This document shows positions 93 through 35,987 of a stretch of 36,138 nucleotides of DNA, piece by piece (positions within the stretch are counted from its first letter, which is position 1; each line of letters begins with the position of its first letter). Made by a program: the position numbers and the translations under genes. The DNA comes from a virus: UHGV virus genome UHGV-0014975; one strand, given 5' to 3'. The notes under the pieces were generated by a model, which saw only the letters and a list, made by a program, of their open reading frames with translations, was not told the DNA's origin and did not search any database.

Positions 93-111
93 TTCCCACA
101 TTCTTCCCACA
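93..111. repeat. attL core (direct repeat TTCCCACATTCTTCCCACA)
   Basis: Exact 19-bp copy of the sequence at 35969..35987. It overlaps an inverted repeat TTCCCACAT(104..112)/ATGTGGGAA(121..129) next to the int 3' end. Confidence 0.75.
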
Positions 112-4127: not shown

Positions 4128-4138
4128 ATGTACATCTC

Positions 4139-4612: not shown

Positions 4613-4624
4613 TCAAAATTTTCC

Positions 4625-5329: not shown

Positions 5330-5577
5330 AAGACAAACCACAGACAATTAAAACTACTGTCTGGTCAGAGTTCAGCAATCTATACATTAACCAGTTAATT
5401 GCTGCAATTAAGAGAAAATTTAAAATCGACCTAGGAATCGAACCTGACTTCCTTAGCGAGAGTGGGCAATCTGAGCTGATTATTCGATTCCTAGCGAATG
5501 ATGAAGATGCAAGTCTAGTTTACGAGTATATCATCAGTAAATGGCAATTTGTGAGCGAACCTGAACTTGTATCTTAA
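5326..5577 (+). CDS. Hypothetical early protein (83 aa)
   Basis: ATGA start/stop overlap with cro; no recognisable motif. Confidence 0.45.
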   Translation: MKDKPQTIKTTVWSEFSNLYINQLIAAIKRKFKIDLGIEPDFLSESGQSELIIRFLANDEDASLVYEYIISKWQFVSEPELVS

Positions 5578-5632
5578 AAGTATTATAGGTCATTATTGTC
5601 CGTTTAAGGGCTAAATAATAACGAATGAAAGG

Positions 5633-6190
5633 ATGTTAATTATGCCAAAAACAGCAAAAATAGGCGAATCACTGAAATTGTCGCTTTTTCTTTCAGGGAA
5701 ACGTCAAAAAGAATTAGCAATTGATGCTAAAACTCCTAACGCAACGATTAGTGATCACTTAAATGGTGCGAATGTAAACATCGACAAAGCAATTGAGTAT
5801 TTGGAGGCGATGCGAGACAACGAATACGAAGCAACAAACGAACTTACCAGCGAGATGAGTAATAGTTATCTTGGATTTTTCAAATCCATGGACGGTCAAC
5901 TGGCAAATGTTAAATCAACCAACGATCTAGAGATCTTCCAAGAGATTGAATCAAACGAGAGAAAAGAAAGAAAAAAAGTTGCTCAGCGCTTAGCGGCAGA
6001 ATCGCAAGTTAGGAATCTTTCAGATGTGGAACGTACTGAATTACGAAGCTACGTTGATGAGTTCTTAGATGAAATAGTCGTGGAGATGGCAATTGTATTT
6101 TCGATACTAAAGATTTTACATTTAAACATCCAAGATGTTATTCAAGCTAGAATGCCTCATTGGATAAAGAAAAGATACATGAAAGGGTGA
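5633..6190 (+). CDS. Hypothetical early protein (185 aa), possible DNA-binding/antirepressor-position protein
   Basis: Weak HTH-like N-terminus (KRQKELAIDAKTPNATISDHLNG) and a charged coiled-coil C-terminal half; RBS AAAGGATG upstream. Confidence 0.45.
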   Translation: MLIMPKTAKIGESLKLSLFLSGKRQKELAIDAKTPNATISDHLNGANVNIDKAIEYLEAMRDNEYEATNELTSEMSNSYLGFFKSMDGQLANVKSTNDLEIFQEIESNERKERKKVAQRLAAESQVRNLSDVERTELRSYVDEFLDEIVVEMAIVFSILKILHLNIQDVIQARMPHWIKKRYMKG

Positions 6191-6195
6191 CTATA

Positions 6196-6477
6196 ATGGC
6201 CGAACAAGATTCTAAGGTGATTATGACTTTTGAACCATTGGCAGTAAAAGTACAATCGGCTGCGAAAATGATGGATACAAGTGAAAACGTGGTAAGAAAC
6301 TTGGTTAAGGCAGGATATCTGAAGGCCATGAAATTTCCCTCAATCACTATTCCTGTTGCTGAGATAAAAAGATTCATTGACTATGCATTAGAAAATAACC
6401 TTGATTTTACTAAGTTTGGAGATCCTTATTATATGAAATCAAAGGACAATAAAGTAGTTAAGTTGAAGGAGGCATAA
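6196..6477 (+). CDS. Small DNA-binding protein, HTH_17/excisionase-like (possible Xis)
   Basis: MAEQDSKVIMTFEPLAVKVQSAAKMMDTSENVVRNLVKAGYLKAMKF resembles winged-helix excisionase/MerR-type binding regions. An alternative upstream start at 6160 overlaps the previous gene. Confidence 0.35.
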   Translation: MAEQDSKVIMTFEPLAVKVQSAAKMMDTSENVVRNLVKAGYLKAMKFPSITIPVAEIKRFIDYALENNLDFTKFGDPYYMKSKDNKVVKLKEA

Positions 6478-6480
6478 ATC

Positions 6481-6672
6481 ATGAAACGATCAATTAAAGA
6501 TACATTCATTGTCACAGCATTTTTACTATGTTTAGTAATCTGTACAGCAATTCATGTAGTAGCAGGATTAGTTTTAGTATTTCTATGGTCTTTCGCAAAT
6601 ATTGTCTATGACATGGCCGCAAAAGATTATCAAGACAAAGAAAAAAGACTTGCTAGCCGTCCAAAGCAATAG
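6481..6672 (+). CDS. Small membrane protein (63 aa, 2 TM)
   Basis: Hydrophobic FIVTAFLLCLVICTAIHVVAGLVLVFLWSF with a charged tail; starts 4 nt after the preceding stop. Confidence 0.45.
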   Translation: MKRSIKDTFIVTAFLLCLVICTAIHVVAGLVLVFLWSFANIVYDMAAKDYQDKEKRLASRPKQ

Positions 6673-6820
6673 CAAGTCCATCAAGTATTTAGATAAATAT
6701 CTTTGTCTCCATTTTAAAACAGAAAAGGGGAAATGACAATGAATTCTTTCGAGAACGCATTAGATCAGTATCTAACAACACCGGGTTGGGGACAGCCGAC
6801 TCAAAGAGAGGAGCCAGAAA

Positions 6821-7765
6821 ATGAGAAGTAAATCAACTCTTGAAATGACTCATGACGAGTGGTTGTTGGACCGCCGAAAAGGTATAGGCGGTTCAGATGT
6901 TGCTACTATCTTAGGACTAAATAAATGGAAATCTCCATATCAGTTATGGCTAGAAAAAACTGGTCAAATCGATTTAGAACACACTGAGAGCGAGCCAGCT
7001 TATTGGGGAAATGTCCTAGAAGGAATTGTAGCAAAAGAATTTCAAGAACGTACTGGTAAAAAGGTTCGTCGAAGGAATCAAGTGTTTGAACATCCACTAC
7101 ATCCTTTTCTACGAGCGAACATTGATCGGGACGTAGTTGGAGAAAACGCCATTTTGGAATGCAAAACAGCTAATGCATTTCTTGGTAAAGAGTGGGAAGG
7201 CGAAGAAGTTCCTTTAAGTTATTTGTGCCAAGTACAGCACTACATGAACGTTTTAAATAAAAAATATTGCTATATCGCTGTTCTAATCGGAGGACAGAAA
7301 TTCATCTGGAAGCGAGTTGATCGTGATCAAGAGCTAATTGACATGATTACTGAACGACTTGTTGAGTTTTGGGAAACAAATGTCCTGGATGGACAAGAGC
7401 CAGTTATAGATGGCAGCGAAGCCACATCAGAGTTTTTAAAAGAAAAATATTCGAACACTAAGGAAGACGAAACAACGTTACCTACTTCTTTTGATGACTT
7501 AATTGATCAAAAGCGTGAGCTGAAGAAAGCAAAGAAAGAGATCGAAACGGCTATCCGTCAGATTGATAACGAGATTATCAATGAGCTTGGAAAACGCAAA
7601 GCATGCATTGGTATTGCACCAAGGAACATCATTTCATGGAAATTGGTTTCTACGAAACGTATGAACAGCAAAAAGCTTGCTGAAAAATATCCAGAAGTAG
7701 CTAAAGACGAGGAAATCTACAACGTTACTGAATCACGAAGACTCACAGAAAAGGAGATTAAATAA
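6821..7765 (+). CDS. YqaJ-like viral recombinase-associated exonuclease (lambda Exo/PD-(D/E)XK family)
   Basis: N-terminal HDEWLLDRRKGIGGSDVATILGLNKWKSPYQLWLEKTGQ signature of YqaJ domain proteins; paired with the downstream RecT. Confidence 0.85.
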   Translation: MRSKSTLEMTHDEWLLDRRKGIGGSDVATILGLNKWKSPYQLWLEKTGQIDLEHTESEPAYWGNVLEGIVAKEFQERTGKKVRRRNQVFEHPLHPFLRANIDRDVVGENAILECKTANAFLGKEWEGEEVPLSYLCQVQHYMNVLNKKYCYIAVLIGGQKFIWKRVDRDQELIDMITERLVEFWETNVLDGQEPVIDGSEATSEFLKEKYSNTKEDETTLPTSFDDLIDQKRELKKAKKEIETAIRQIDNEIINELGKRKACIGIAPRNIISWKLVSTKRMNSKKLAEKYPEVAKDEEIYNVTESRRLTEKEIK

Positions 7766-7766
7766 T

Positions 7767-8606
7767 ATGGCCACAAATGATGCATTAAAGAGTCAGCTCG
7801 CTGAGAAACCACAAAAACAAGTTGCTGCTGGTCAGTTAGGGCTTAAAGCATTGATGAATACACCAACAATGAGGAAAAAGTTTGAGGATGTACTCAAAGA
7901 TAAATCAGATGGATTTATGGCCAGTGTCCTGAATCTAGTTAGTAATGATTCGTATTTGAGTAGCACAGAGCCTATGACTATCGTAACAAGCGCCATGGTT
8001 GCGGCTTCGCTTGATTTACCAGTTGATAAAAATCTTGGTTACGCATGGATAGTACCTTACAAAGGGAAGGCACAATTTCAACTTGGTTATAAGGGGTATA
8101 TTCAATTAGCTCAGCGATCGGGTCAATACAAAGCACTGAACGTGATTGAAGTGTATGAAGGCGAATTAAAAGGTTGGAATCGATTAACCGAAGAATTTGA
8201 ATTTGATCAAAACGGAAAGCAATCGGATGAAGTGATCGGGTATGTGGGATATTTTGAGTTATTAAACGGTTTTAAGAAAACAGTGTATTGGACCAAACAA
8301 GAAATCGAAGCCCACAAACGGAAATTCAGTAAATCAGATTTTGGCTGGAAAAAAGATTATGACGCTATGGCTAAAAAAACTGTTCTAAGGAATATGTTGA
8401 GTAAATGGGGAATCTTGTCTATCGATATGCAGAGAGCTTCGATCAGCGATGAAACTGTGGTGAATGAAGTCCAAGAAGACGGTTTTATCATATCTGAAAA
8501 CGATGAGACTAATCAGCGAAAAGAGGCTGAACCAATTAATGACACAGAAACTAACGAAAACATTGAAAGTCTGTTTGATTCATCAAATCCACCGTTAAAC
8601 AAATAA
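7767..8606 (+). CDS. recT: RecT-family single-strand annealing protein
   Basis: 279 aa, motifs ...NLGYAWIVPYKGKAQFQLGYKGYIQLAQRSGQYK...; immediately follows the YqaJ exonuclease. Confidence 0.85.
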   Translation: MATNDALKSQLAEKPQKQVAAGQLGLKALMNTPTMRKKFEDVLKDKSDGFMASVLNLVSNDSYLSSTEPMTIVTSAMVAASLDLPVDKNLGYAWIVPYKGKAQFQLGYKGYIQLAQRSGQYKALNVIEVYEGELKGWNRLTEEFEFDQNGKQSDEVIGYVGYFELLNGFKKTVYWTKQEIEAHKRKFSKSDFGWKKDYDAMAKKTVLRNMLSKWGILSIDMQRASISDETVVNEVQEDGFIISENDETNQRKEAEPINDTETNENIESLFDSSNPPLNK

Positions 8607-8644
8607 TGAGGGAGTTTATCTCCCTCTGATTAGGAGGAATAAAC

Positions 8645-9568
8645 GTGGCAAGACCGACTAAGAAAGGTCTTGATTATTTTCCTCTAGATGTCGATTTTTT
8701 ATCAGATCTAAAAGTTCGAAGAATTATTAAAGCATGCGGTAAAGAAGCCGTTCATATACTGGTCGCCCTGCTGGCTAATATTTATCGTGATGAGGGGTAT
8801 TACGTTTTGTGGGATGACGACCTTGCGTTCTTAGTGGCTGACGAAGTTGGTACGAAGGAGGGCACAGTTGAAGAACTGGTGAAAAAAGCCGTGCAAGTAA
8901 AATTCTTTGATAAAGATATTTTTGATAAATACTCCGTATTAACTTCTAAAGGTATTCAAAGCAGATACATTTTGGCCACTAAGGAACGCAAAAAAGTTGA
9001 GCTTGAATATAAGTATTTGATGACAAATGAAGTTAATCGATCGAATATCTCGATTAATGGGCGGAATAACTCGGTTAATCAGGGGAATAATCAACAAAGT
9101 AAAGAAAAGGAAAGTAAAGAAAAGGAAATAAAAGAAGATGCTACTGCGAGCGAGAGTGCGTCTCTTGAAACTTTTCAAAAGTTATGGTTCTTTCCGAATG
9201 TTGTACAGGTCGATGATCTACTTAATCTGGTGGATATTTATGGCGATGAACTTGTAAATGCTGCAATTAAACTTGCTGGTAGTAAAGACGTTCCTAAGAA
9301 TCGAGCCATTAGTTTTTTAACAGCTTCTCTACAGGAATGGGCAGATGCTAACGTAAAAACCATTGAACAGGCAAGGGAGTACCAACGGACAAGAGGTGCT
9401 AAAAAGCAAGGATATAATCAAAAGCCGATTCGTGAAGAACAGCTTCCTGATTGGGCAGAAAATCCGGTTGAAGAACCTCAGATTTCTCCAGAGAGACAGG
9501 CTGAAATTGATGCCAAGCTAGCTGCCTATTTAAGCAAAAAGAATCAGCGAAAGGAGCAAGTTGAGTGA
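8645..9568 (+). CDS. Phage replication initiation/replisome-organizer protein (Lin1244/Lin1753 N-domain plus DnaD-like C-domain)
   Basis: GTG start with AGGAGG RBS. N-terminus MARPTKKGLDYFPLDVDFLSDLKV...GYYVLWDDD, typical of the Lin1244 family; C-terminal ...VNAAIKLAGSKDVPKNRAISFLTASLQEWADANVKTIEQA resembles the DnaD domain. Confidence 0.75.
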   Translation: MARPTKKGLDYFPLDVDFLSDLKVRRIIKACGKEAVHILVALLANIYRDEGYYVLWDDDLAFLVADEVGTKEGTVEELVKKAVQVKFFDKDIFDKYSVLTSKGIQSRYILATKERKKVELEYKYLMTNEVNRSNISINGRNNSVNQGNNQQSKEKESKEKEIKEDATASESASLETFQKLWFFPNVVQVDDLLNLVDIYGDELVNAAIKLAGSKDVPKNRAISFLTASLQEWADANVKTIEQAREYQRTRGAKKQGYNQKPIREEQLPDWAENPVEEPQISPERQAEIDAKLAAYLSKKNQRKEQVE

Positions 9569-9972
9569 AACTCATTATTCCTATTGCGCCTAAACCACAG
9601 TCGAGACCACGGTTCACCAAGCATCGTAAGACTCCTTACGAGGAAACAGCAATGAAATCATACAAAAATGCGGTTAAGTATCACGCTATGGCCACAAAGC
9701 CGATGCTGATTGAGAAAGAACCTGTAATGATTGATGTCTGCTTTTTTATCTATCCGCCGGCCTATATCTCGAAAGTAAAGAAAAACAGGACTTTGCTTGA
9801 TGATGAGACCATGTACTGCGATAAGAAGCCAGACATTGACAATTACTTTAAAGCTGTAACCGATGCAGTAAACGGCATTTTGTATAAGGATGACGGACAG
9901 ATTGCTGTGAGTATTAGTCGCAAGGTATACAGTTGGAACCCACGAACAGAAATTGAAATTCAACCACTTTAG
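9565..9972 (+). CDS. rusA: RusA-family Holliday junction resolvase
   Basis: 135 aa, ...KPQSRPRFT...PDIDNYFKAVTDAVNGILYKDDGQI...; GTG start overlapping the upstream stop. Confidence 0.8.
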   Translation: MKLIIPIAPKPQSRPRFTKHRKTPYEETAMKSYKNAVKYHAMATKPMLIEKEPVMIDVCFFIYPPAYISKVKKNRTLLDDETMYCDKKPDIDNYFKAVTDAVNGILYKDDGQIAVSISRKVYSWNPRTEIEIQPL

Positions 9973-9983
9973 GAGGAAAAACC

Positions 9984-10262
9984 ATGAGATTACAAGACAC
10001 TTTTGTCATTCATCCGGAGGGACGTCGCTATGAGATTCAACCGAAGGTCAGACCAGCAAAAACGAAAGTAAAAGTCGGCAAAATATACAACTGTGCCATC
10101 GAAGGATTTTCGGGATTAGTTAGAGCTGAATGCTTGAAAATCTATGAGAAATCGGCACATGTGAGAATTATTGTCTGTCATAAAGAAAGAGATGAATGGC
10201 GGCAGAAAGTTCTTGGTGATCAAACTGTTGTTAAGCTGAAAAATATGGTTTTGGCTAGATAA
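9984..10262 (+). CDS. Hypothetical protein (92 aa)
   Basis: Strong RBS AGGAGGAAAAACC-ATG; basic protein, no recognised motif. Confidence 0.45.
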   Translation: MRLQDTFVIHPEGRRYEIQPKVRPAKTKVKVGKIYNCAIEGFSGLVRAECLKIYEKSAHVRIIVCHKERDEWRQKVLGDQTVVKLKNMVLAR

Positions 10263-10318
10263 GGAGTTTGTAATCGGAAGAAATTACCAACTAGGAGGAG
10301 AAGAAAATAAGTAAAGAA

Positions 10319-10735
10319 ATGCACGAAAAATGGATGTGTTCTGTGGATGAAGAGCGTTGGCAAGCCGCTGAATATTTTGACACTAAAGAAGAAGCCGTGA
10401 GATTTGGTATTGAGTCAATTCAAACATTTAACAAGAATCCAGAAGACGGGTGTTTGGATGATGAAATGGGAAGTACACCAGAAGAAGTTGTAACTAGCTT
10501 TTATGTGGGACAAGCGTTCTGTCCAGGGATACCTTTCAACGTTGATGATTTACTAGAACGTATACAGGAAGCTGCTTATGAAGACGGGGGAGAGTTTGCC
10601 GAAGACTATTTAGATGATGTAACAAAAGAACACAGGGAAGAACTAGATGACTTAATTCAAAACTGGTTCATAAAGCACAAATATTTACCTAACTGGTACA
10701 ACATTTATGAAATTGATGAAATTAGTGTGATCTGA
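10319..10735 (+). CDS. Highly acidic hypothetical protein (138 aa), possible DNA mimic
   Basis: Very D/E-rich (e.g. EAAYEDGGEFAEDYLDDVTKEHREELDDLIQ); early-region location. Start uncertain because the RBS is ~17 nt upstream. Confidence 0.4.
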   Translation: MHEKWMCSVDEERWQAAEYFDTKEEAVRFGIESIQTFNKNPEDGCLDDEMGSTPEEVVTSFYVGQAFCPGIPFNVDDLLERIQEAAYEDGGEFAEDYLDDVTKEHREELDDLIQNWFIKHKYLPNWYNIYEIDEISVI

Positions 10736-10777
10736 TTCCACTATCCACCAAAATAGCAAACTGAAAGGAGGGCACCA

Positions 10778-11539
10778 ATGATCGTTTGGGCGCTATTCGA
10801 CAGCGGAAATGGTTGTTATTCAAAAGCTGCAAAAAAGTTTGAAGATATTGAGATTTATTCGATTGGAATTGACCGCAAGAACAAGAGTAATCATTTTATC
10901 AATCTGAACTTAGCATATTATTCTAGGTTGTTTGGAGATAATACTTTATTCGATCACTTAGATAGCTTGCCAAATCCAGATCTTATCATTGCAAGTCCGC
11001 CGTGTGAATCCTGGTCTGTGGCAAGTGCTATGGATAATGGGAATGCCTGTTGGAAACAAGAAAAGGGAGATGGACTCTTTGAGCCGCAAGTACCTTTATC
11101 TCGCTTTACTATCAGATACAGGAGTGACTACGATCGGTATCAATTCAAGCCAGAAAAGTCACTAATGACGCGAATAAATGGCGAGCTTTGTGCATTTAAC
11201 ACGATTGAAATCATCAAACGATATCAACCAAACGTTTACATCATAGAGAATCCGGCTCATGGCCGTTTGTGGGAATATATTGAGAAGATTCTAGGCTTTG
11301 AGATTCCCTATGAGAATCTCACTTATTACAACAATTATGATTATCCAATTAAAAAACCTACTAAATTCAAAAGCAATATAGATTTAGACCTAAAAAAAGA
11401 TATTATCCCAAATGAAGTTGAGTTTAAGTCTGGCTTTAGTAGAGACTATAACGAGCGATCAAATATACCGGCTGCATTAGTAGAGGACATATTTCATAAA
11501 GTTCTGGCGATGGGTTTAGTTAGTAATCCGACGAAATAG
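10778..11539 (+). CDS. Compact divergent C5-cytosine DNA methyltransferase-like protein (253 aa)
   Basis: Ordered C5-MTase-like motifs: I LFDSGNG (FxGxG), IV ASPPCESWS (PC catalytic Cys76, codon 11003..11005), VI IIENPAHG (ENV-like). Unusually short and lacks an obvious TRD. Confidence 0.45.
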   Translation: MIVWALFDSGNGCYSKAAKKFEDIEIYSIGIDRKNKSNHFINLNLAYYSRLFGDNTLFDHLDSLPNPDLIIASPPCESWSVASAMDNGNACWKQEKGDGLFEPQVPLSRFTIRYRSDYDRYQFKPEKSLMTRINGELCAFNTIEIIKRYQPNVYIIENPAHGRLWEYIEKILGFEIPYENLTYYNNYDYPIKKPTKFKSNIDLDLKKDIIPNEVEFKSGFSRDYNERSNIPAALVEDIFHKVLAMGLVSNPTK

Positions 11540-11568
11540 CAAACAAAAAAGACTAATAGAAATTAGCC

Positions 11569-11778
11569 TTAAAGTTTGCCTTTAGAACGTTTAGTAGCAA
11601 GTAACATATTCAAGACAAAGTTTACAAAAAATAAGAAGCTAGCAATCTTTAATCCGGTACTTCCATTGTTTATGAAGACCAAAAGTAATGCACTAACAAA
11701 GTTGACGAGGGCGATAAATAGATAGAAATTTAGTAAGGTTCTTTTTTTCAAAGTACTCACCCCTTTTATAAATATCAT
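11569..11778 (-). CDS. Small hydrophobic protein (69 aa, 2 TM), questionable
   Basis: Only minus-strand ORF in a 300-bp gap of the rightward early operon; strongly hydrophobic but no Shine-Dalgarno. Confidence 0.25.
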   Translation of the reverse strand: MIFIKGVSTLKKRTLLNFYLFIALVNFVSALLLVFINNGSTGLKIASFLFFVNFVLNMLLATKRSKGKL

Positions 11779-11844
11779 GATAAAAGAAAAATATAATTAA
11801 TTCAACAATCGTCAGCGATAAGTAAATGGAGGGATAAGGTAATT

Positions 11845-12060
11845 ATGGAAAAATGTAAAGCATGTTCCGACTATTTCAAATGGGATGATGAAGTAATAGA
11901 AGTGGATGATGAGTATTATCACAAAGACTGCGTAACTCTCTATCCAACAGGATATGTCGCTTTTTTAGATGATGACTTCCTCGGAGAAACTGAAAATGCA
12001 GATGGAACTACGGCTTATAGTATTTTGGAAGAAGGTCAATATATAGATGACGAAGATTAA
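11845..12060 (+). CDS. Acidic zinc-ribbon-like small protein (71 aa)
   Basis: C-x2-C ... H-x2-C (CKACSDYF...YHKDC) plus a very acidic C-terminus; good RBS GGAGGGATAAGG. Confidence 0.5.
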   Translation: MEKCKACSDYFKWDDEVIEVDDEYYHKDCVTLYPTGYVAFLDDDFLGETENADGTTAYSILEEGQYIDDED

Positions 12061-12265
12061 GAACAGGAATAAGCAAATGAATGATAGTCTATCCATCATC
12101 ATAATACTGTTATCGATTGCAGGTCTAAGTTGGCTATCCTATACAATTGTGGACCAGCAAAAGCAGATTGAACAGTTAGAACAACAGTTAGAAGAAGTAC
12201 AAATGAAGTATGAAATTATCAAAAATGATCCGTTAGCTAGGGATGCCATGGAAGCAGGAGGATGA
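12047..12265 (+). CDS. Small membrane/coiled-coil protein (72 aa)
   Basis: One TM (LSIIIILLSIAGLSWLSYTIV) followed by QQKQIEQLEQQLEEVQMKYE coiled coil. Confidence 0.45.
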   Translation: MTKIKNRNKQMNDSLSIIIILLSIAGLSWLSYTIVDQQKQIEQLEQQLEEVQMKYEIIKNDPLARDAMEAGG

Positions 12266-12268
12266 AAC

Positions 12269-12520
12269 ATGATAAGAGAATGCGAAAGAATAATTCAAGA
12301 AAGCTTTTACAAACTCAATTATGCTCATGAACGTTTAATAAAACGTGGTATTCATGGAAAAATATTACGTTTTGAAATGAGCCAAACAACTTATCGAATG
12401 CTAAAAGACAGCATTTCAATTACTAGAGATGATTCCCAAATCACCTTATATGGAAAGACGATTTTGATTAATGATGAGTTGCCTAGGGGACAAGTTAATG
12501 TGTTAGGAGTAGAGGCATGA
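12269..12520 (+). CDS. Hypothetical protein (83 aa)
   Basis: RBS GGAGGATGAAAC-ATG; no motif. Confidence 0.45.
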   Translation: MIRECERIIQESFYKLNYAHERLIKRGIHGKILRFEMSQTTYRMLKDSISITRDDSQITLYGKTILINDELPRGQVNVLGVEA

Positions 12521-15019: not shown

Positions 15020-16325
15020 AATTGACATCCAAAAAGAAGTAAATCCTCATTTTAAATCAGTTTGGATCAGTAAGAAGCCTTATAACATCTTGAGAGGCGG
15101 AAGGAATAGTTTCAAATCGTCTGTCATTGCGCTCAAGCTTGTTTTTATGATGGTTGGATACATTATGACCGGAAGGAAAGCAAATGTTGTAATCATTCGT
15201 AAGGTGGCAAATACGATACGAGATTCAGTATTCTTAAAAATCCAGTGGGCAATCGGAAAATTCTTTCTCTTAGATCAGTTCAGCTGTACTGTTTCTCCAT
15301 TTAAAATCACCCACAGGAAAACAGGATCTACATTTTATTTTTATGGCCAAGATGATTTTCAAAAGCTGAAATCAAACGACATCGGTAATATTATTGCAGT
15401 GTGGGTCGAAGAAGCTGCAGAGTTTAACAGTGCAGAAGAATTTGACCAGATGAAAGCTACATTTATGCGGCAAAAACCAGTCGATGCCGTGCAGGTACAA
15501 TTCTTCTATTCCTACAATCCTCCTAGAAATCCATATCATTGGATTAACGAGTGGACCAACGAATTAGAAGGACATAAAGATTACTTGATTCATTCATCAA
15601 GCTACAAAGATGATGCGTTAGGCTTTGTTACGCAGCAAATGATAGATGAAATCAACCGGATCAAAGAGAACGATTATGACTATTACTTGTACTTATATGA
15701 AGGGTTGCCGGTTGGGTTCCAGGATAATGTGTACAATGTTGAAACATTCAGAAGAATAGTAGATTTGCCTAGCGATGACTATGTCACCGCTATTTTTTAT
15801 TCCCTTGACGGCGGTCATGCTCAGTCAGCAACAACAGTTCTTTGTTTAGGATTGACGGCAAAACAAAAAGTCGTATTGCTAGACACTTACTATTATTCAC
15901 CTGCCGGAAAAAGCGTGAAGCTTGCACCTTCCCAGCTTTCCACAGAGGTGCATAAGTTCATTTCTAAGACACTTGAAGATGATCGGTGGAAGAATGCTCA
16001 AGTTATTAATAGAACGATTGATAGTGCTGAGGCAGCTCTTAGAAATCAGTATTATCTCGATTATCAAATACGCTGGAATCCAGTAGCTAAGAAAGATAAA
16101 CAAACCATGATTGACTTTGCGACAAATTTATTTGCGCAAGGTCGTTTTTATTATCTCGATACAGAAAGCAACAAGATTTTCTATGAAGAACATAAGCACT
16201 ACCGGTACAAAGAAGGTACTGCCGATACGGATAACCCGGTCGTAATCAAAGAAGATGACCATACCTGTGATGCATTTGAATATTTCTGCGTAGATAATGC
16301 ATCCATTTTAGGAATAGCAGTCTAG
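15012..16325 (+). CDS. terL: Terminase large subunit (ATPase/nuclease)
   Basis: Start MNRIDIQ overlapping the TerS stop. Walker A-like LRGGRNSFKSS, Walker B VVIIRK...VWVEEAAEF, C-terminal nuclease DxD/E motifs; 438 aa. Confidence 0.85.
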   Translation: MNRIDIQKEVNPHFKSVWISKKPYNILRGGRNSFKSSVIALKLVFMMVGYIMTGRKANVVIIRKVANTIRDSVFLKIQWAIGKFFLLDQFSCTVSPFKITHRKTGSTFYFYGQDDFQKLKSNDIGNIIAVWVEEAAEFNSAEEFDQMKATFMRQKPVDAVQVQFFYSYNPPRNPYHWINEWTNELEGHKDYLIHSSSYKDDALGFVTQQMIDEINRIKENDYDYYLYLYEGLPVGFQDNVYNVETFRRIVDLPSDDYVTAIFYSLDGGHAQSATTVLCLGLTAKQKVVLLDTYYYSPAGKSVKLAPSQLSTEVHKFISKTLEDDRWKNAQVINRTIDSAEAALRNQYYLDYQIRWNPVAKKDKQTMIDFATNLFAQGRFYYLDTESNKIFYEEHKHYRYKEGTADTDNPVVIKEDDHTCDAFEYFCVDNASILGIAV

Positions 16326-16336
16326 GAGGTGATAAA

Positions 16337-17851
16337 TTGGGACTAATTCAGTCAATTAAAAGCTTATTTAGAAAGGGGGCGGAGGCTATCTTGCCAGTTC
16401 AAAGTCTAAACTCGATCTTGGACCATCCGAAGATCAACTTAGAGTCAGAAGAATACAACAGAATCATTGAAAGCCTCAGATACTATGAGGGTAAGCATGA
16501 TGATATTCAATTTAAGAATAGCAACGGAAAGACAAAAAAACGCCCTTTTTCTAGCATTAACATGATGAAAAAAGTTGCTGGGCAGTATGCAACAGTAGTT
16601 TTCAATGAGCAATGTGAGATTGAAGTAGATGGTGATGCAAAAGAGTTCATCGAAAAAGTATTCGAACACAACGATTTCAAGAAGAACTTTGCTAAGTATC
16701 TAGAGCCAATGTTTGCCCTTGGTGGCCTAGCATGTAGACCGTATTTGGATAAGAAAACCAATCAGATTGAATTTTCTTGGGCATTAGCAGATGCGTTTTA
16801 TCCATTAGATAGTAATTCAAATAATATTAGTGAATGTGCTATTCCTTTCAGGACTATTCGTACAGAAGGCGGAAAACAGGTCTATTACACACTGCTAGAA
16901 TTTCATGAATGGCAAGAAAATGGGATGTATACAGTCACAAATGAGCTATATCGATCGGAGATTCCAGAAATAGTAGGATCGCAGGTCGATTTATCTTTGC
17001 TTTATGATGATCTAGAACCTCAGTCAACTTTCAATACAGGCATATTATCCAGACCGTTATTCGCATATCTAAAAACAAGTGGGTTTAATAATATTTCTCC
17101 TTATTCTCCCTTGGGATTAGGTGTTTGTGATAACTGTAAGAAGACATTAGACCGTATTAACCGGACGTTTGACGAATTCAACGAGGAAATCAGACGAGGA
17201 AAGAGACGGATCGCTGCGAGTGAGATGCTTCTGAAAAGTCGTGTAGAGAATGGCCAGGTCAAAATGTACTTTGATGATGACGAAGACATTTTCCAAATTA
17301 TCCCTGGGGCCAATATGGATGATTACACAATCAAAGATCTAACCACTAGCATTCGGACAACGGAATACGTTGCTGCGATCAACCATCATCTGAGAACCTT
17401 GGAAATGGAAACAAATCTTTCTAGCGGAACATTTAGTTTCGATAGTTCTGGAAAGTTATCCACAAAAACTGCTACAGAAGTGGTCAGCGAGAACTCTCAA
17501 ACTTATCAGACACGATCAATGCAAATCACCAATATCGAAAAGTTTGTTAAGGAACTGGTTATCACTGTTTGCGAGCTAGGTAAATCATTAAACGTCTACG
17601 ATGGTTCAATTCCGTCATTTGATGATATAGGTGTCAATTTTGATGATGGAGCATTTACATCGACGAGTGAAAAACTCACGTTTTATCAGCAACTGATAAC
17701 GCTAGGTTATCCAGTTAATAAAGCTTTTGAGAAGATTTTGAATCTTCCAGAAGACGAAGCATTGGAACTTTATCAGTTAGGATTGCGACAAAGTGCGGAT
17801 AAGTTATCCGGAATGATGTCTAATGCAGGTCTACCAGAGGAAATGGAGTGA
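16337..17851 (+). CDS. Portal protein (SPP1 gp6-like)
   Basis: 504 aa, TTG start 6 nt after AGGAGG; size and position after TerL; typical portal core composition. Confidence 0.8.
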   Translation: MGLIQSIKSLFRKGAEAILPVQSLNSILDHPKINLESEEYNRIIESLRYYEGKHDDIQFKNSNGKTKKRPFSSINMMKKVAGQYATVVFNEQCEIEVDGDAKEFIEKVFEHNDFKKNFAKYLEPMFALGGLACRPYLDKKTNQIEFSWALADAFYPLDSNSNNISECAIPFRTIRTEGGKQVYYTLLEFHEWQENGMYTVTNELYRSEIPEIVGSQVDLSLLYDDLEPQSTFNTGILSRPLFAYLKTSGFNNISPYSPLGLGVCDNCKKTLDRINRTFDEFNEEIRRGKRRIAASEMLLKSRVENGQVKMYFDDDEDIFQIIPGANMDDYTIKDLTTSIRTTEYVAAINHHLRTLEMETNLSSGTFSFDSSGKLSTKTATEVVSENSQTYQTRSMQITNIEKFVKELVITVCELGKSLNVYDGSIPSFDDIGVNFDDGAFTSTSEKLTFYQQLITLGYPVNKAFEKILNLPEDEALELYQLGLRQSADKLSGMMSNAGLPEEME

Positions 17852-32770: not shown

Positions 32771-33574
32771 ATGTCTATTGAAAACATGATTTCATGGATG
32801 ACAAGTAAGGAAGGGCGAGTCAATTATTCCATGATAAGTCGTTTAGGTCCAAATAGCTACGATTGTTCTAGTGCTGTGTTCTTCTCGTTGATCGCAGGAG
32901 GTTACCTGCCAAAAGGATCAATGGGAAATACAGAAACGCTATTTGCCATGAATGGAACAGTGCTCAAGAAAATTAGTCGTTCAGAAGTGAAACGTGGTGA
33001 TATCTTTATCGCTGGAACTCCTGGGGCTTCTCATGGATCAGAAGGGCACACCGGTATCTTTTTGAGTAACAAGAGTTTTATCCATTGCAGCTATTATTGG
33101 AATGGAATTCACACAGACAGCCATGATTCTTATATGAGCACTCGATTAACCCACCATTTCTACCGAATTGTTGCAAGTGGTAATGCTGATGTAAATACTG
33201 ACAACAGTGCTCAAATGATTAAATTAGCAATCGATGGACAATGGGGACCACTCGTTACTCTACGTTTGCAAGAATACTACAATACTACTCGTGACAAAAT
33301 AGTTAGTCACCAGTACAAACAAAAGTACAATCAAAATATCTATTCAGCAGAATTTGATACTACTTTGATCGGATCCGACGTGATTCGTGCAATCCAGATG
33401 GGTCTCAAAGCAAGAGGATATTATTCTGGTGTAATTGATGGTCTATGTGGTGAAGCAACAATCAAAGCGATGCAAAAAGCATTAGGAACAACGGTTGATG
33501 GTGTTATCAGTCCGCAATCCGATATGGTTAAGGCGTTGCAGAGAGCATTGAACAACAATAAATTGCCATGGTAA
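32771..33574 (+). CDS. Endolysin: N-terminal Cys/His peptidoglycan hydrolase (Amidase_5/CHAP-like) plus two PG_binding_1 repeats
   Basis: N-domain ...VNYSMISRLGPNSYDCSSAVFFSLIAGG...GHTGIF (Cys...His catalytic pair). C-terminal repeats DGQWGPLVTLRLQEYY and DGLCGEATIKAMQKALGTTVDGV match the PG-binding-1 pattern (DGxxGxxTxxAxxxFQ). Confidence 0.8.
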   Translation: MSIENMISWMTSKEGRVNYSMISRLGPNSYDCSSAVFFSLIAGGYLPKGSMGNTETLFAMNGTVLKKISRSEVKRGDIFIAGTPGASHGSEGHTGIFLSNKSFIHCSYYWNGIHTDSHDSYMSTRLTHHFYRIVASGNADVNTDNSAQMIKLAIDGQWGPLVTLRLQEYYNTTRDKIVSHQYKQKYNQNIYSAEFDTTLIGSDVIRAIQMGLKARGYYSGVIDGLCGEATIKAMQKALGTTVDGVISPQSDMVKALQRALNNNKLPW

Positions 33575-33577
33575 ACA

Positions 33578-33610
33578 AAAATAAGCCCGCTTAGGCGGGC
33601 TTATTGATTG
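33578..33610 (+). terminator. Late-operon terminator
   Basis: Perfect 10-bp stem ATAAGCCCGC/GCGGGCTTAT (33581..33590 / 33595..33604) with loop TTAG, then a T-rich tail. Confidence 0.7.
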
Positions 33611-33868
33611 TATTGATCAATTTATTGCAAAGTTTATAGTTGCTATATGGTCATTCAGTAATATGCATTAATAATTTTATTAGTATTCTGCTCTACATAG
33701 ATCACGATGAACCAGACTTTTCTAAACAACATGAATGTTTACAACCGAAACTTAATAAGTAAGTTACCAAATATCTTAATTTCTCAGTTAATTATTTCTC
33801 TAAAATATATTTCCTTTGAATTATATTTAATATATAATCTTAGTTAAGATATATACAAGGAGATTACT

Positions 33869-34774
33869 TTGGCTAGAGAAGTTGTTGTACCTACAAAATT
33901 TACAAAATACGCTTTAAATGAATTTTTAGGAAATATTATTTCCGAAAATCTAGAACCTTTAGATGATACATATATTATAGATCTGACTCGTTTAGAATTT
34001 ATTGACACAGGTGGAGTAGCCTGTTTATACAATATCTGCATGTGGTTAACTGAAGCTGCTTCAGTAGTGGCGACATTTAAAATTAGTAACATTAATACAA
34101 CATACAAAAATAAAGAGGCTATGCGTTATCTTGAAGACTGCGGTTTTTTTTCTCATTTTTTTGACGAAGAGCATATTTTTGGACTTGGAAATTTAAGATC
34201 TACAACATTACCGATTAAATTGTTGAAAGTATCTGATAGTTATCAATGGAATCAATTGACACTGAAAAGTTGGTTGCAAAATTGCACTAAAAGAAATGCA
34301 GAATTTTCTAATATACAAGTTGGAATCGAAGAAATTTTTAATAATATTGAAGACCATTCATCGAAAAACATAGGATGTGTCTTTGGGCAATTTTTTCCAA
34401 GAAGAAAGGATAACCAAATATGTATAACTATCTCGGATTTCGGACGTGGAATTCCAACTGTTATGAGAGAAACCTTCGGAAATCACAATGATTTACATTT
34501 ATTGCTTAAGGCATTAGAAGAAGGAGTTTCGACGAAATCAACTCCAAGAAACAGAGGTGCGGGATTACCTAATATTATGCGAAGTTTGACCACTGCAAGA
34601 GTTGGTACTGTACATATCCTATCAAATCATGCTAAGGTTATTATAGAGGATGGAAAAATCTCCAAGGTTTTTAGTCTTCAAAACTATTATCCAGGTACTT
34701 TTTTCGAGGTATCAATCAATGTAGATAACGATAAGTTATATGAGGGAGAAGAAGAGGAGGAATTCGAATGGTAA
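33869..34774 (+). CDS. Fusion protein: N-terminal STAS-like (anti-sigma-antagonist-like) domain plus C-terminal GHKL/HATPase_c (RsbW/SpoIIAB-like Ser/Thr kinase) domain
   Basis: TTG start 6 nt after AGGAG. N-domain YIIDLTRLEFIDTGGVACLYNI aligns to the SpoIIAA/RsbV STAS core (L..L.F.DSSGlgvL), with Thr47 at the phospho-Ser position. C-domain has the N-box EEIFNNIEDHSS (~34346), G1 ITISDFGRGIP (~34481) and G2 NRGAGLPNIMRSL (~34610). Very AT-rich; own promoter-like region 33790..33860. Confidence 0.6.
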   Translation: MAREVVVPTKFTKYALNEFLGNIISENLEPLDDTYIIDLTRLEFIDTGGVACLYNICMWLTEAASVVATFKISNINTTYKNKEAMRYLEDCGFFSHFFDEEHIFGLGNLRSTTLPIKLLKVSDSYQWNQLTLKSWLQNCTKRNAEFSNIQVGIEEIFNNIEDHSSKNIGCVFGQFFPRRKDNQICITISDFGRGIPTVMRETFGNHNDLHLLLKALEEGVSTKSTPRNRGAGLPNIMRSLTTARVGTVHILSNHAKVIIEDGKISKVFSLQNYYPGTFFEVSINVDNDKLYEGEEEEEFEW

Positions 34775-35061
34775 AAGTTAACTTATTAAATGATTTGAAA
34801 ACTTTTTCGACAAATGATGATGGCGATGTCTTATTTGAGATTTTAAGAAAAAATTTAGATGCTGGAAATAAAGTTGTAGTATCATTCGAAGGTGTCCACG
34901 GACTGAATTCTTCTTTTGTGAATTCAGCGTTTATTCGGCTACTTGACTTATATTCGTTTGATTTCATAAAAAAAAATGTAGGTTTTGAATCTACAAACAA
35001 ACAAATAAATCAATTAATTTTAAGTAGGTTCAAATTTGAAACTTCTAAATGTACAGCTTGA
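34768..35061 (+). CDS. Small STAS-like (DUF4325-type) protein, translationally coupled partner of the STAS-GHKL protein
   Basis: ATG overlaps the upstream stop (ATGgTAA), RBS GAGGAGGAA; 97 aa; ...DAGNKVVVSFEGVHGLNSSFVNSAFIRLLD resembles STAS/DUF4325 cores. Confidence 0.55.
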   Translation: MVKVNLLNDLKTFSTNDDGDVLFEILRKNLDAGNKVVVSFEGVHGLNSSFVNSAFIRLLDLYSFDFIKKNVGFESTNKQINQLILSRFKFETSKCTA

Positions 35062-35083
35062 AAAGATATAGATAATGAAAAAA

Positions 35084-35111
35084 GACCCTAGCTCACGCTA
35101 AGGTCTTTTTT
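35084..35111. terminator. Bidirectional rho-independent terminator between convergent operons
   Basis: AAAAAA-GACCCTAGC-tcac-GCTAAGGTC-TTTTTT (9-bp stem with one mismatch, flanked by A-run and T-run). Confidence 0.65.
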
Positions 35112-35357
35112 CATTGCTTCAAATTCAATCATAATCTTTGTTTTTCCAATCACCGAATACTTCTTCACAACAAATTGCTTACGATCGTTAAACTCCCCAG
35201 CCACAACAATCTGCATTCCTTCGTCCACATCAGCTAAAAAGTTGAGACTGTGTGCAGCAATCAGACAATTCACACCATCAATCGAGAACCGAACCAAAGG
35301 GGTCCTCGACATTTTCAGCACTCGTACCTTCGAAACTACACCTTTCAATGATTTCAC
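35088..35357 (-). CDS. Hypothetical protein (89 aa; true start possibly Met16 at 35312)
   Basis: Last gene of the minus-strand operon, ends inside the terminator stem. Overlaps the upstream ORF by 80 nt in another frame. Confidence 0.4.
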   Translation of the reverse strand: MKSLKGVVSKVRVLKMSRTPLVRFSIDGVNCLIAAHSLNFLADVDEGMQIVVAGEFNDRKQFVVKKYSVIGKTKIMIEFEAMKKDLSVS

Positions 35358-35544
35358 AGTAATCGCCTCCGTATCGTTGTATATAGTAACTATAATCAGT
35401 TTTGCCTAACGTTAGATTGACATAATGCTCAACGCAACGAGTTCCAAAAACACACTCTTGAGATTCGGATATAGAATCCGGAAACTCTTCTAGAAACTCT
35501 GAATAAGAAATATAGCCCTGCTCATACTGACTGATTACATTCAT
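35278..35544 (-). CDS. Hypothetical Cys-rich small protein (88 aa)
   Basis: Start overlaps the YolD-like gene stop by 4 nt (translational coupling); several Cys (CVFGTRCVEH...YCEIIERC). Confidence 0.4.
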   Translation of the reverse strand: MNVISQYEQGYISYSEFLEEFPDSISESQECVFGTRCVEHYVNLTLGKTDYSYYIQRYGGDYCEIIERCSFEGTSAENVEDPFGSVLD

Positions 35545-35912
35545 GAGAGATCAAACCATTTCAATTCTCCTTGATAAAATTCTACATTTCGAATTTCCTC
35601 ATATTCAACGAGAGTAGAATCAACGTAAATTCCTATTTCATTATGCCCAGAAAGGCGGCCTACAATGTCCGGCATGAATTTGTCATTCTGTGTATAGTTA
35701 AGCTGAACAGCAATCTTTTTATTTTTCAAAAGAACCTCTTGTAAGAATTCTCCAATCTCTTCAATTTCCATTTCCGGTTTAGGTGGGTAAGTGTATGCTC
35801 GTTCTTCTTCAACTTTATTTACACTTGTTGTATGTTCAGATAAAAAGAAGCCCATCCATTTTAATTTTTTCCGGTCCTCGTAAGGTTTAATCATTCCCAT
35901 AACTATCATCAC
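35541..35912 (-). CDS. YolD-like protein (UmuD-analogue family of Gram-positive bacteria)
   Basis: 123 aa; KLKWMGFFLSEHTTSV and ...IAVQLNYTQNDKFMPDIVGRLSGHNEIGIYVDS match the conserved YolD-like pattern (KW.pF...E...; v.i.y......G.v..id). Cheo box in its promoter. Confidence 0.55.
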   Translation of the reverse strand: MMIVMGMIKPYEDRKKLKWMGFFLSEHTTSVNKVEEERAYTYPPKPEMEIEEIGEFLQEVLLKNKKIAVQLNYTQNDKFMPDIVGRLSGHNEIGIYVDSTLVEYEEIRNVEFYQGELKWFDLS

Positions 35913-35968: not shown

Positions 35969-35987
35969 TTCCCACATTCTTCCCACA
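35969..35987. repeat. attR core (direct repeat TTCCCACATTCTTCCCACA)
   Basis: Exact 19-bp copy of 93..111; the sequence beyond it is AT-rich non-phage DNA. Confidence 0.75.

Follow-up and report, generated by a model that had tools for sequence, protein, structure and literature searches.

A prophage-borne STAS-GHKL kinase and STAS protein pair, probably a widespread effector-less variant of the VapK/VapS kind

Relationship to described STAS-GHKL/STAS switches

Two described systems, CapK/CapS and VapK/VapS/VapC (Chambers et al., EMBO J 2026, PMC13373217), come closest to the gene pair of this prophage. In both of them a STAS-GHKL kinase is activated by ssDNA and phosphorylates a STAS protein. 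[quoted passage not shown] The published outputs are a repressor domain with a downstream operon in case of CapKS and a PIN toxin in case of VapKSC. CapK/CapS genes are often situated immediately downstream of R-M operons, and the immune operons under their control comprise Bub, CBASS, Thoeris, CarolAnn, and others (PMC13373217). Structures are available for VapS-VapC (PDB 9Z7O) and CapS (9Z71-9Z73).

The gene pair considered here is located in the virus genome UHGV-0014975, the 36,138 nt of which are referred to as the window, between the endolysin gene (Amidase_5 in Pfam) and attR of an Enterococcus-type prophage. Gene 1 (K) encodes a STAS-GHKL kinase and gene 2 (S) a small STAS/DUF4325 protein, a domain reading already made in the initial annotation and borne out by homology to VapK and VapS. 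In hhalign comparisons the K family matches VapK at 99.5% (E 1.4e-22) in 270 columns across STAS and GHKL, and VapS (9Z7O) is the sole significant match of the S family in the PDB (E 1e-8), ending at residue 78 of the profile. The match of K to CapK is restricted to the GHKL core (85 columns, E 2e-7), and that of the S profile to CapS is not significant (9% probability). The architecture had previously been regarded as unassigned, a view overtaken by the report of June 2026, since CapK/CapS and VapK/VapS/VapC are of the same kind (PMC13373217), and K and S are demonstrable homologs of VapK and VapS.

Both VapKSC and the K-S pair comprise a STAS-GHKL kinase of similar length without HTH (301 aa for K, 302 aa for VapK), encoded by the first gene, and a DUF4325-type STAS protein with a conserved Ser/Thr at the position of VapS S48, encoded by the second. 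Furthermore, the ssDNA-stacking Phe (VapK F54, K F44) and the catalytic Asn (VapK N160, K N159) are conserved, and both systems occur in defence-type neighbourhoods. In contrast to VapKSC, a VapC/PIN gene is absent from the window and from all related loci surveyed, and S (97 aa) lacks the C-terminal inhibitory helix of VapS, residues 94-116, which reach the VapC active site (PMC13373217). Further differences are an acidic/aromatic tail of K, where VapK ends with ...YYRLTSELG, a conserved 7-nt overlap of the K and S genes, and a habitat mainly at prophage ends. Identity is low (approximately 20% for K and VapK, 25-30% for S and VapS), and both activation by ssDNA and the site of phosphorylation are therefore extrapolations from these relatives. 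The effector-less two-gene form and its occurrence at prophage ends are new with respect to the published systems and are not described there (PMC13373217).

CapK likewise combines GHKL with STAS, and the protein encoded next, CapS, is a STAS protein carrying a Ser-Ser-Phe acceptor motif (ATDSSF in CapS, GLNSSF in S of the window). They resemble the pair in their placement downstream of R-M genes, as observed for mitis-group streptococcal pairs, and presumably in the logic of sensing ssDNA or DNA damage. CapK differs by an extra N-terminal HTH, whereas K begins directly with STAS, and the C-terminal wHTH DNA-binding domain of CapS is absent from S. Instead of an immune operon, a terminator hairpin and a convergent gene are situated downstream of S.

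With the anti-sigma switches SpoIIAB/SpoIIAA and RsbW/RsbV, the pair shares a GHKL Ser kinase of the HATPase_c_2 type (27 of 35 K homologs) and a single-domain STAS substrate with a conserved Ser at the N-terminus of helix α2. Neither a sigma factor nor a PP2C phosphatase is encoded in the window or near the surveyed pairs, though, and K begins with a further STAS domain. As a mobile module carried by phages it is set apart from a chromosomal regulon, and in its closest characterised relatives the output runs via the STAS protein, not via the kinase.

The cassette and its two proteins

The coordinates of both reading frames and of their overlap, as initially annotated, were confirmed, and so was the late-operon terminator upstream of the pair (Table 1), which is readable as a terminator on either strand. 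The assignment to a moron slot between endolysin and attR holds for the position, except that the pair is not located directly at attR: a three-gene cassette on the minus strand (35088-35912) separates it from the att repeat at 35969-35987.

Table 1. Features of the K-S locus and of the prophage borders in the window.
Feature	Coordinates	Strand	Details
Candidate attL core, 19-nt direct repeat TTCCCACATTCTTCCCACA	93..111		Repeat family D12, 100% identity
Integrase gene	139-1284	minus	Pfam; candidate attL core just outside
Mobile cassette, 2.2 kb	33335..35535		blastn, 94% identity to the otherwise unrelated prophage L005
Intrinsic terminator of the late/lysis operon	33580-33605	+	11-bp stem, 6 G-C pairs; after endolysin
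AT-rich leader	33606..33868	+	24% GC; RBS AAGGAG at 33857-33862
Gene 1 (K), VapK-like STAS-GHKL protein kinase	33869..34774	+	301 aa, TTG start
K, N-terminal STAS-like domain (approx. aa 1-100)	33869..34168	+	F44, invariant G49 and N55
K, GHKL (Bergerat-fold) kinase domain (approx. aa 120-288)	34226..34732	+	Motifs, Pfam, fold
K, acidic/aromatic disordered C-terminal tail (…YEGEEEEEFEW)	34736..34771	+	pLDDT <55
ATGGTAA overlap junction, translational coupling	34768..34774	+	7 nt, gene 1/gene 2
Gene 2 (S), stand-alone STAS/DUF4325 protein, VapS homolog	34768..35061	+	97 aa
S, Ser48-Ser49 codons, N-terminus of STAS helix α2	34909..34914	+	Aligned with VapS S48
Strong hairpin	35070..35118		-24.2 kcal/mol, z = -6.7; A- and U-runs on flanks
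Candidate attR core, copy 2 of the 19-nt direct repeat	35969..35987		Spacing 35,876

Apart from the gene pair with its leader and the preceding terminator, the mobile cassette takes in the 3' end of the lysin gene and the convergent small gene. In prophage L005 the tail and lysin genes differ while the gene pair is identical; the cassette is thus exchanged between unrelated prophages. The leader (264 nt) moves with the genes inside the 2.2-kb cassette and is presumably the site of the cassette's own promoter. As to the claim that the pair is independently promoted, the travelling leader agrees with it, whereas in a promoter scan upstream of gene 1 promoter-like matches were no commoner than expected by chance. 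The description as strikingly AT-rich is overstated: GC of the pair is below that of the whole window (31.5% vs. 37.3%), which places it at the 6th percentile, and still lower values are reached in the accessory region near the integrase gene. On the other side of the pair, the hairpin 3' of gene 2 matches its own reverse complement at 35074-35115; it serves as a terminator in both directions and separates gene 2 from the convergent next gene, for which no Pfam match was found. An AT-richer cassette between terminators, downstream of the lysin gene and exchangeable among phages, resembles prophage morons and defence hotspots (the lysis-attR slot of Firmicutes, P2 old/tin-type loci), a class likeness of position only, not of mechanism.

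The TTG start of K is preceded by AAGGAG at a distance of 6 nt, and the AF2 model of the protein has a pLDDT of 91. F44 (codon at 33998-34000), which aligns to the ssDNA-stacking F54 of VapK, is situated at a position that is aromatic in 114 of 124 homologs. The GHKL motifs of the initial annotation are upheld, as their key residues are invariant across the 124 homologs, namely E155, N158, N159, D162, and H163 of the N-box, D190, G192, and G194 of G1 (D190-F-G192-x-G194), and N228, G230, and G232 of G2 (N228-R-G230-x-G232-L). The invariant N159 aligns with the catalytic residues CapK N218 and VapK N160. For the window protein alone, both expected Pfam domains remain below cutoff (STAS E 0.043, HATPase E 5e-4), but they are found at the family level, where HATPase_c is matched by 33, HATPase_c_2 by 27, and STAS by 7 of 35 homologs (best STAS E 3.5e-8). 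The predicted structure has a GHKL fold, and among the structural targets SpoIIAB is covered best (TM 0.74). Thr47 of K, proposed earlier as a phospho-site, is not supported: this position is Pro in 101 of 124 homologs and carries a hydroxyl in only two, and the canonical phospho-site position before the invariant Gly49 is itself Gly in the window protein.

The C-terminal tail of K coincides with the start signals of gene 2. The GAGGAGG run in the tail also serves gene 2 as Shine-Dalgarno sequence, and the start codon of gene 2 is taken from the Trp codon, which explains the terminal Trp of K. The 7-nt overlap, ATGGTRA, recurs across several phyla, in 67 of 101 non-redundant pairs. K homologs of Bacteroidota which lack the overlap keep the acidic-aromatic end nonetheless, and a residual role at the protein level is therefore possible. 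SSB and T7 gp2.5 have ssDNA-mimicking autoinhibitory tails, and the tail of K is possibly another candidate for such an element. A further idea, that the tail, lacking in VapK, substitutes for the missing effector, was rejected, since forms with a nuclease effector fused to S also have the tail.

S is the presumed substrate of K and consists of a STAS domain only, the fold of which is confirmed, without DNA-binding domain; the last STAS helix reaches the end of the protein at residue 97. Judged from the alignment, Ser48 is the predicted phospho-acceptor. Among 150 representatives, position 48 is S/T in 143 (95%), position 49 is S in 129 and A in 14, F50 is aromatic in all, and N52 is present in 143. 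An invariant surface on helix α4 (Q79, I80, N81, I84, R87, and F88) is absent from effector-fused forms. The stand-alone form of approximately 100 aa is the usual one, with at least 214 clusters (50% identity, E<=1e-10), and C-terminal fusions among the 150 representatives are restricted to rare GrlR-like and DUF3606 cases, which are uninformative on the output.

Distribution and genomic context of related pairs

S is located directly after K in 126 of 136 loci. Of the ten exceptions, nine break off at the kinase stop or no more than a few codons away from it, and the remaining one, L042, is a decayed remnant lacking S. Three independent lineages (L050/L133, L054, and L059) have retained an intact S next to a disrupted K. 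Reading this bias as a sign of K toxicity was discarded, since the gene length ratio of 3:1 predicts such a bias and renders it uninformative. Neither a conserved third gene nor a PIN gene was found in approximately 100 non-redundant loci. Co-directional third genes are heterogeneous (ABC ATPase, YolD, an HTH protein, and unknowns), and no recurrent co-directional operon is situated downstream of the pair in related loci.

The cassette spans Firmicutes, Proteobacteria, Spirochaetes, and Desulfobacterota. The neighbourhood survey suggested in the initial annotation revealed prophage ends and R-M or defence islands, apart from distant Bacteroidota pairs, and in no case a sigma factor. For 53 of 67 copies in IMG/VR (79%), a contig end is no farther than 3.5 kb away. 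In Enterococcus, Streptococcus, and Bacillus prophages the pair follows the holin-lysin genes; prophages of Streptococcus agalactiae and S. dysgalactiae are among the carriers, and in Streptococcus phages the pair occurs alongside paratox. In a P2-like Burkholderia phage it adjoins the integrase gene and a BrnTA module. In mitis-group streptococci the pair is situated 20 nt downstream of hsdRMS and is followed by a gene for an HTH_3+Peptidase_M78 protein, and in S. ferus and "caviae" it adjoins other R-M or helicase genes. The Bacteroidota pairs are located among housekeeping genes, and a defence role may therefore not be universal.

Three loci of the same subfamily encode K, the same junction, and then S fused to a MORC-type GHKL ATPase and a NucS-like nuclease. 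A relative of this MORC-nuclease effector without the STAS tag is located inside a Type I R-M operon, and together both observations point to S as a handle on the effector.

A nucleotide search of phage records with the cassette gave no match, so that relatives were found at the protein level only. NCBIfam contains no model for K or S, and in PHROGs both are covered only by the "unknown function" families phrog_3364 and phrog_9989. PADLOC-DB v2.0 contains no model of the pair and gave no match for S; the sole match is that of K to the N-terminus (37-256 of 1750) of one DrmA model (E 1.6e-6). Literature searches on STAS/GHKL or DUF4325 pairs in defence yielded the CapKS/VapKSC paper and otherwise irrelevant mentions.

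Possible modes of action

Taken together, the pair is probably a widespread effector-less variant of the VapKS kind, a lysogen-expressed phospho-switch triggered by ssDNA. By analogy to the characterised relatives, K would be idle in the lysogen. Binding of ssDNA in the groove of STAS and GHKL, with stacking on Phe44, would switch it on, and this ssDNA could arise by damage to DNA or by replication of a superinfecting phage. Active K would phosphorylate Ser48 at the start of helix α2 of S, which is likely made in step with K via termination and reinitiation at the ATGGTAA junction. As in CapS and VapS, a protein-protein interface on this face of S would be broken by phosphorylation, and a bound partner would be released or activated. 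Since the cassette encodes no such partner, S would act in trans on one which, as a guess, is supplied by the host, the prophage, or the incoming phage; equally a guess is protection of the lysogen as its role, be it anti-phage defence or stress-triggered growth control. For this full reading, i.e., an effector-less switch of the VapK/VapS-CapK/CapS kind in a self-contained moron cassette with a trans partner and a function in lysogen protection, we consider the chances evenly balanced. The earlier idea of a lysogen-expressed sensor or defence module stands as a candidate. A trans partner is awkward for a cassette found in several phyla, as such a partner would need to be either phage-borne itself or a cellular component of very high conservation. 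It is tempting to speculate, tentatively, that the pair is a complete portable immune or stress switch of a new type, in which either K is an abortive-infection effector or S controls a universally conserved target. In the former case K would be without precedent as a kinase toxin of the GHKL fold, and a STAS pseudosubstrate would keep it in check; in the latter, S would act through its invariant α4 surface.

The former case leads to the more specific proposal that K is a growth-arresting effector and S its stoichiometric pseudosubstrate or antitoxin in a TA-like abortive infection system, where ssDNA-activated K would phosphorylate and shed S and then modify essential host or phage proteins. 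Two-gene completeness in approximately 100 non-redundant loci would thereby be explained without a trans partner, the K:S ratio would be fixed by the tight translational coupling, and the habitat (prophage ends, a BrnTA neighbour, R-M islands) is typical of TA and Abi systems. Kinase toxins have precedent in HipA, Doc, and Stk2-type Abi, but we know of none of the GHKL type, and the antitoxin gene would follow the toxin gene, the less common order. The three lineages with disrupted K, as opposed to a single S-less remnant, would fit as well, but are what the gene lengths predict. As the characterised relatives use the kinase only as a sensor, with the STAS protein as output, and the fused clade carries its effector on S and not on K, we regard this proposal as doubtful. 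Unlikely is a regulator of the phage life cycle that senses ssDNA or damage for the benefit of the phage rather than for host defence, adjusting induction, the timing of lysis, or decisions on superinfection alongside an ImmR/ImmA-type repressor module. The pair is mostly phage-borne and adjoins the lysis cassette, ssDNA as its predicted signal is also what classically triggers induction, the prophage also encodes an HTH_3 repressor and a Peptidase_M78 protein (Pfam), and a protein with both domains follows the mitis-group pairs. However, the pair also occurs outside prophages at R-M operons and in defence-type islands, is swapped like a moron among unrelated phages outside the conserved regulatory core, lies at the prophage end opposite the lysogeny switch, and includes with S a protein without DNA-binding domain.

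Phages often encode mimics of host immune components, and homology of a phage-borne pair to host immune sensors would also fit a counter-defence decoy that disturbs CapKS/VapKSC-like or other ssDNA-sensing immunity of the host, e.g., by titration of a host kinase by S or of ssDNA by K. Considering the chromosomal R-M contexts and the nuclease-effector fusion, the invariance of all catalytic residues, which would be superfluous in a passive decoy, and the location in a moron slot between two terminators instead of among early lytic genes, we deem a decoy very unlikely. Least probable of all is the hijacking of host sigma-B-type partner switching raised in the initial annotation, with K inhibiting a sigma factor like RsbW/SpoIIAB and S relieving the inhibition. 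Fold and motifs do resemble SpoIIAB/RsbW and SpoIIAA/RsbV, but in agreement with the original observation no sigma factor is encoded in the window or beside the pair in any of approximately 140 related loci examined. Furthermore, the closest characterised relatives act on non-sigma targets through the STAS protein and not the kinase, and the extra N-terminal STAS domain of K corresponds to the ssDNA site of these relatives. Enterococci and streptococci, the main hosts, are not known to possess the sigma-B/RsbVW partner-switching system.

The STAS-GHKL/STAS switch was recognised as an immune sensor only in 2026, in forms with an obvious output. The K-S pair represents a third form, with its output absent from the locus and apparently commoner in phage. 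It is found in prophages of the clinically relevant Enterococcus, Streptococcus agalactiae, and S. dysgalactiae and of Bacillus, and also at R-M operons of oral streptococci. If the pair is a complete portable switch, ssDNA would be converted by the prophage directly into a phospho-signal, with no dedicated toxin gene involved. Due to the small size (1.2 kb) and the self-contained nature of the cassette, which is easy to transplant, the question of its output is directly testable. Resolving how phosphorylated or unphosphorylated S acts would extend the CapKS/VapKSC model, bear on ssDNA sensing as a possible general trigger of prophage-encoded immunity in Gram-positives, and possibly reveal a new effector principle.

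The gene pair and its prophage

The pair represents a new and widespread variant of the VapKS/CapKS kinase-substrate switch that lacks an effector and is carried mainly by prophages. Its genes, encoding the STAS-GHKL protein K (gene 1) and the STAS/DUF4325 protein S (gene 2), are co-directional and overlap by the heptamer ATGGTAA, and both ORFs were read at exactly the positions predicted in the initial annotation. With a GC content of 31.5% (window 37.3%, 264-nt leader 24%) the pair is AT-rich as had been described, but not extremely so, and the presumed independent promoter could not be called above chance in a promoter scan.

A perfect direct repeat provides candidate attL/attR cores bounding a prophage of approximately 35.9 kb, so the pair is located inside it. 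The prophage-end position proposed originally is retained: a holin gene followed by an Amidase_5 endolysin gene is situated upstream, and three small minus-strand genes, forming a further cassette, intervene before attR is reached. Upstream of these genes there is a promoter-like site close to consensus (TTTACA-17-TATAAT, 35952->35924). At the DNA level the prophage is closest to Enterococcus phages, and a protein identical to K is annotated from uncultured Enterococcus. At the opposite prophage end, the SIR2_2 protein probably represents a second, unrelated defence-type moron; the neighbouring lysogeny module seems to belong to the ImmR/ImmA type.

Features of the window and of related loci
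Feature	Location	Strand	Remarks
19-nt repeat TTCCCACATTCTTCCCACA	93-111 and 35969-35987		first copy beside tyrosine integrase
SIR2_2 protein	1548-3185	-	544 aa; PF13289, E 1e-23; between integrase and repressor module
Lysogeny module	4139-4960	-	110-aa HTH_3 CI-like repressor beside 156-aa Peptidase_M78 protein
Terminator	33580-33605		11-bp stem; directly after endolysin gene, upstream of pair
Gene 1 (K)	33869..34774	+	301 aa; TTG start; AAGGAG 6 nt upstream
Dual-coding junction	34736-34774		conserved across phyla; related loci, 101 pairs surveyed
Gene 2 (S)	34768..35061	+	97 aa; ATG start
Strong hairpin	35070-35118		downstream of pair; -24.2 kcal/mol, z = -6.7
Three small genes	35088-35912	-	89, 88 and 123 aa; no Pfam matches
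hsdR-hsdM-hsdS and kinase/STAS pair	L007-L011, L013, L046, ~1900-10430		mitis-group streptococci
STAS-MORC-NucS fusion genes	L032 8795-10978; L143 4036-6222; L142 688-2871		

Homology to VapK and VapS

The assignment of gene 1 as a STAS-GHKL protein is solid at the family level. The Pfam domains expected by the initial annotation were recovered for S (DUF4325, "STAS-like", above threshold with E 4.5e-11 for the window protein alone), whereas K alone matches HATPase_c, HATPase_c_2 and STAS below threshold, and only its homologs bear them out (33, 27 and 7 of 35, respectively, with a best E of 3.5e-8 for STAS). The N-box, G1, and G2 residues of the GHKL domain do not vary among the 124 family sequences, and the AlphaFold2 model of K (pLDDT 91) matches GHKL structures, with SpoIIAB as the most completely covered target.

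A full-text literature search returned a single paper of direct relevance (Chambers et al., EMBO J 2026; PMC13373217). It describes CapK (HTH-STAS-GHKL) and CapS (STAS-wHTH), which together de-repress adjacent immune operons, CapK being activated by ssDNA to phosphorylate CapS at Ser54, and the related anti-phage toxin-antitoxin system VapKSC, in which VapK (STAS-GHKL) phosphorylates VapS, a STAS domain with a C-terminal helix, at Ser48 and thereby releases the PIN toxin VapC (PMC13373217). A system of this kind is thus no longer undescribed, as had been supposed; two-gene or prophage-borne forms are not mentioned in this paper, and PADLOC holds no model for the pair.

VapK, CapK, and CapS sequences for comparison were taken from the source files of PMC13373217. 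The gene 1 family profile aligns to VapK over 270 columns comprising both domains (99.5%, E 1.4e-22) and to CapK in the GHKL core only. F54 of VapK, an ssDNA contact, corresponds to F44 of K (aromatic in 92% of homologs), and the catalytic Asn to the invariant N159. Searched against the entire PDB, the gene 2 family profile matches only VapS (9Z7O) significantly (E 1e-8). Ser48 of S, the first residue of helix alpha2, is aligned on the VapS phospho-serine; among 150 representatives clustered at 50% identity, 95% have Ser/Thr at this position, Ser or Ala follows at position 49, all 150 carry an aromatic residue at position 50 (Phe in S), and 143 keep Asn52. Due to these profile matches and the residue conservation, the window proteins are homologs of VapK and VapS.

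Thr47 of K, initially proposed as the phospho-site, is replaced by Pro in 101 of 124 homologs, and the canonical acceptor position before the invariant Gly49 is occupied by Gly in the window protein. Judged from the alignments, the conserved acceptor would sit on the small partner S at Ser48. Unlike VapKSC, the window pair has no VapC beside it, and nothing co-directional follows gene 2; S lacks both the C-terminal inhibitory region of VapS and the wHTH of CapS, whereas K carries an acidic-aromatic C-terminal tail that is absent from VapK.

Family-wide organization, junction and context

These absences extend to the family as a whole. Considering the window together with loci from phage records, one genome per GTDB species, IMG/VR and public assemblies, a kinase gene is followed by a STAS gene in 126 of 136 loci. 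Of the ten exceptions, nine are truncated because their contig ends at the kinase stop or a few codons from it, and the last, L042, has decayed to a remnant. Neither a recurrent third gene nor a PIN domain was found among 101 non-redundant pairs, and of 214 gene 2-type clusters (E<=1e-10) among 1.8 billion representative proteins nearly all are stand-alone, with 90-110 aa.

The ATGGTRA overlap occurs in 67 of 101 pairs; in most others the overlap comprises 10-22 nt and the same kinase Trp codon still gives the ATG of the STAS gene. Its Shine-Dalgarno sequence, GAGGAGG, lies in the preceding Glu-rich run of the kinase tail, and the kinase stop codon forces S to start with Met-Val. This junction indicates coupled translation and explains two invariant features, the Trp at the end of K and the Met-Val with which S begins. 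Since Bacteroidota homologs, whose genes do not overlap and which lack the Trp, keep the acidic-then-aromatic C-terminus, the disordered tail of K probably also acts at the protein level.

In Firmicutes prophages (Enterococcus, Streptococcus agalactiae, S. dysgalactiae, and Bacillus), the pair follows a holin gene and an endolysin gene, the latter of at least three types unrelated to one another. In a P2-like Burkholderia phage it is situated between the integrase gene and a BrnTA module, and in a Francisella phage, as its published annotation table has it, a 293-aa gene and a DUF4325 gene lie between repressor and integrase. Within IMG/VR, 53 of 67 occurrences lie <=3.5 kb from a contig end. 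The mobile cassette holding the pair (33335-35535) shares 94% identity with L005, a prophage with different tail and lysin genes. There, a homolog of the first small gene likewise follows the pair, adjoining a Y-family DNA polymerase gene. The impB/UmuC-type polymerase beside the pair in L005 (11654-13018) and a YolD-like protein 26 nt downstream of it in Brevibacillus (L050/L133, 9197-9616) belong to DNA-damage tolerance. In locus L137 of the B. subtilis group, an LXG-EndoU toxin accompanied by a SUKH immunity gene comes after the pair, as does an NB-ARC/TPR STAND NTPase (10595-12433, 15657-16906); this end of the prophage thus borders on an island of conflict systems.

In seven mitis-group Streptococcus species, a complete hsdR-hsdM-hsdS operon is followed, at a distance of 20 nt, by the pair; in L010, L011, and L046, for example, a 361-aa HTH_3 and Peptidase_M78 fusion protein, reminiscent of CapH/CapP-type DNA-damage regulators, comes after the pair. 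The pair follows a ResIII/Eco57I-type R-M pair in S. ferus and a PLD-SNF2 helicase matching defence models in S. "caviae". Distant Bacteroidota pairs occur among housekeeping genes.

In L032, L142, and L143, a kinase of the same subfamily with the ATGGTAA junction and ...EW tail precedes a 727-aa protein, in which a STAS module keeping the T-S-S-F-x-N motif is joined to both a MORC-type GHKL ATPase (HATPase_c_3) and a NucS-like endonuclease. About 1,100 effector relatives lack the STAS tag, and one of them (L144, 6001-7962) is flanked by the hsdS and hsdR genes of a Type I R-M operon. Due to this fusion, the STAS module of this subfamily is considered the effector handle and the kinase the sensor, as in CapS and VapS. 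The alpha4 residues Q79, N81, R87, and F88, invariant in stand-alone S, are missing from the fused modules and may thus mark an interaction surface peculiar to the stand-alone form. Residues 38-268 of K also match positions 37-256 of the 1750-position PADLOC model of the DISARM helicase DrmA (E 1.6e-6), so some DrmA proteins may carry an N-terminal module of this type.

Proposed function

The observations cover the homology of both proteins, their conserved residues, the completeness of the two-gene unit, its mobility and its context; ssDNA activation of K and the acceptor site on S are extrapolated from relatives at ~20-30% identity, and output and phenotype are guesses. K would be an ssDNA-activated Ser/Thr kinase with S as its substrate, and phosphorylation at Ser48 would disrupt an interface to which S contributes its alpha2 face. 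The cassette does not encode the partner of S, which is presumed to come in trans. The pair probably serves to protect the lysogen from superinfection or from DNA-damage stress.

As the main rival, K itself might be the effector and S an antitoxin-like pseudosubstrate, which would render the cassette self-sufficient and explain how it can move across phyla; GHKL kinases offer no precedent for this, however. Regulation of the life cycle and counter-defence are less likely, and so is sigma-factor control: as noted initially, no sigma factor is encoded here, nor was one seen beside the pair in any locus examined, and the suggested hijacking of sigma-B is probably wrong. The original observation was largely correct and its interpretation right in kind, although overtaken by the 2026 publication and mistaken in the phospho-site. 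The sensing half of the pair is now predictable and the cassette easy to test, which makes the pair moderately interesting.
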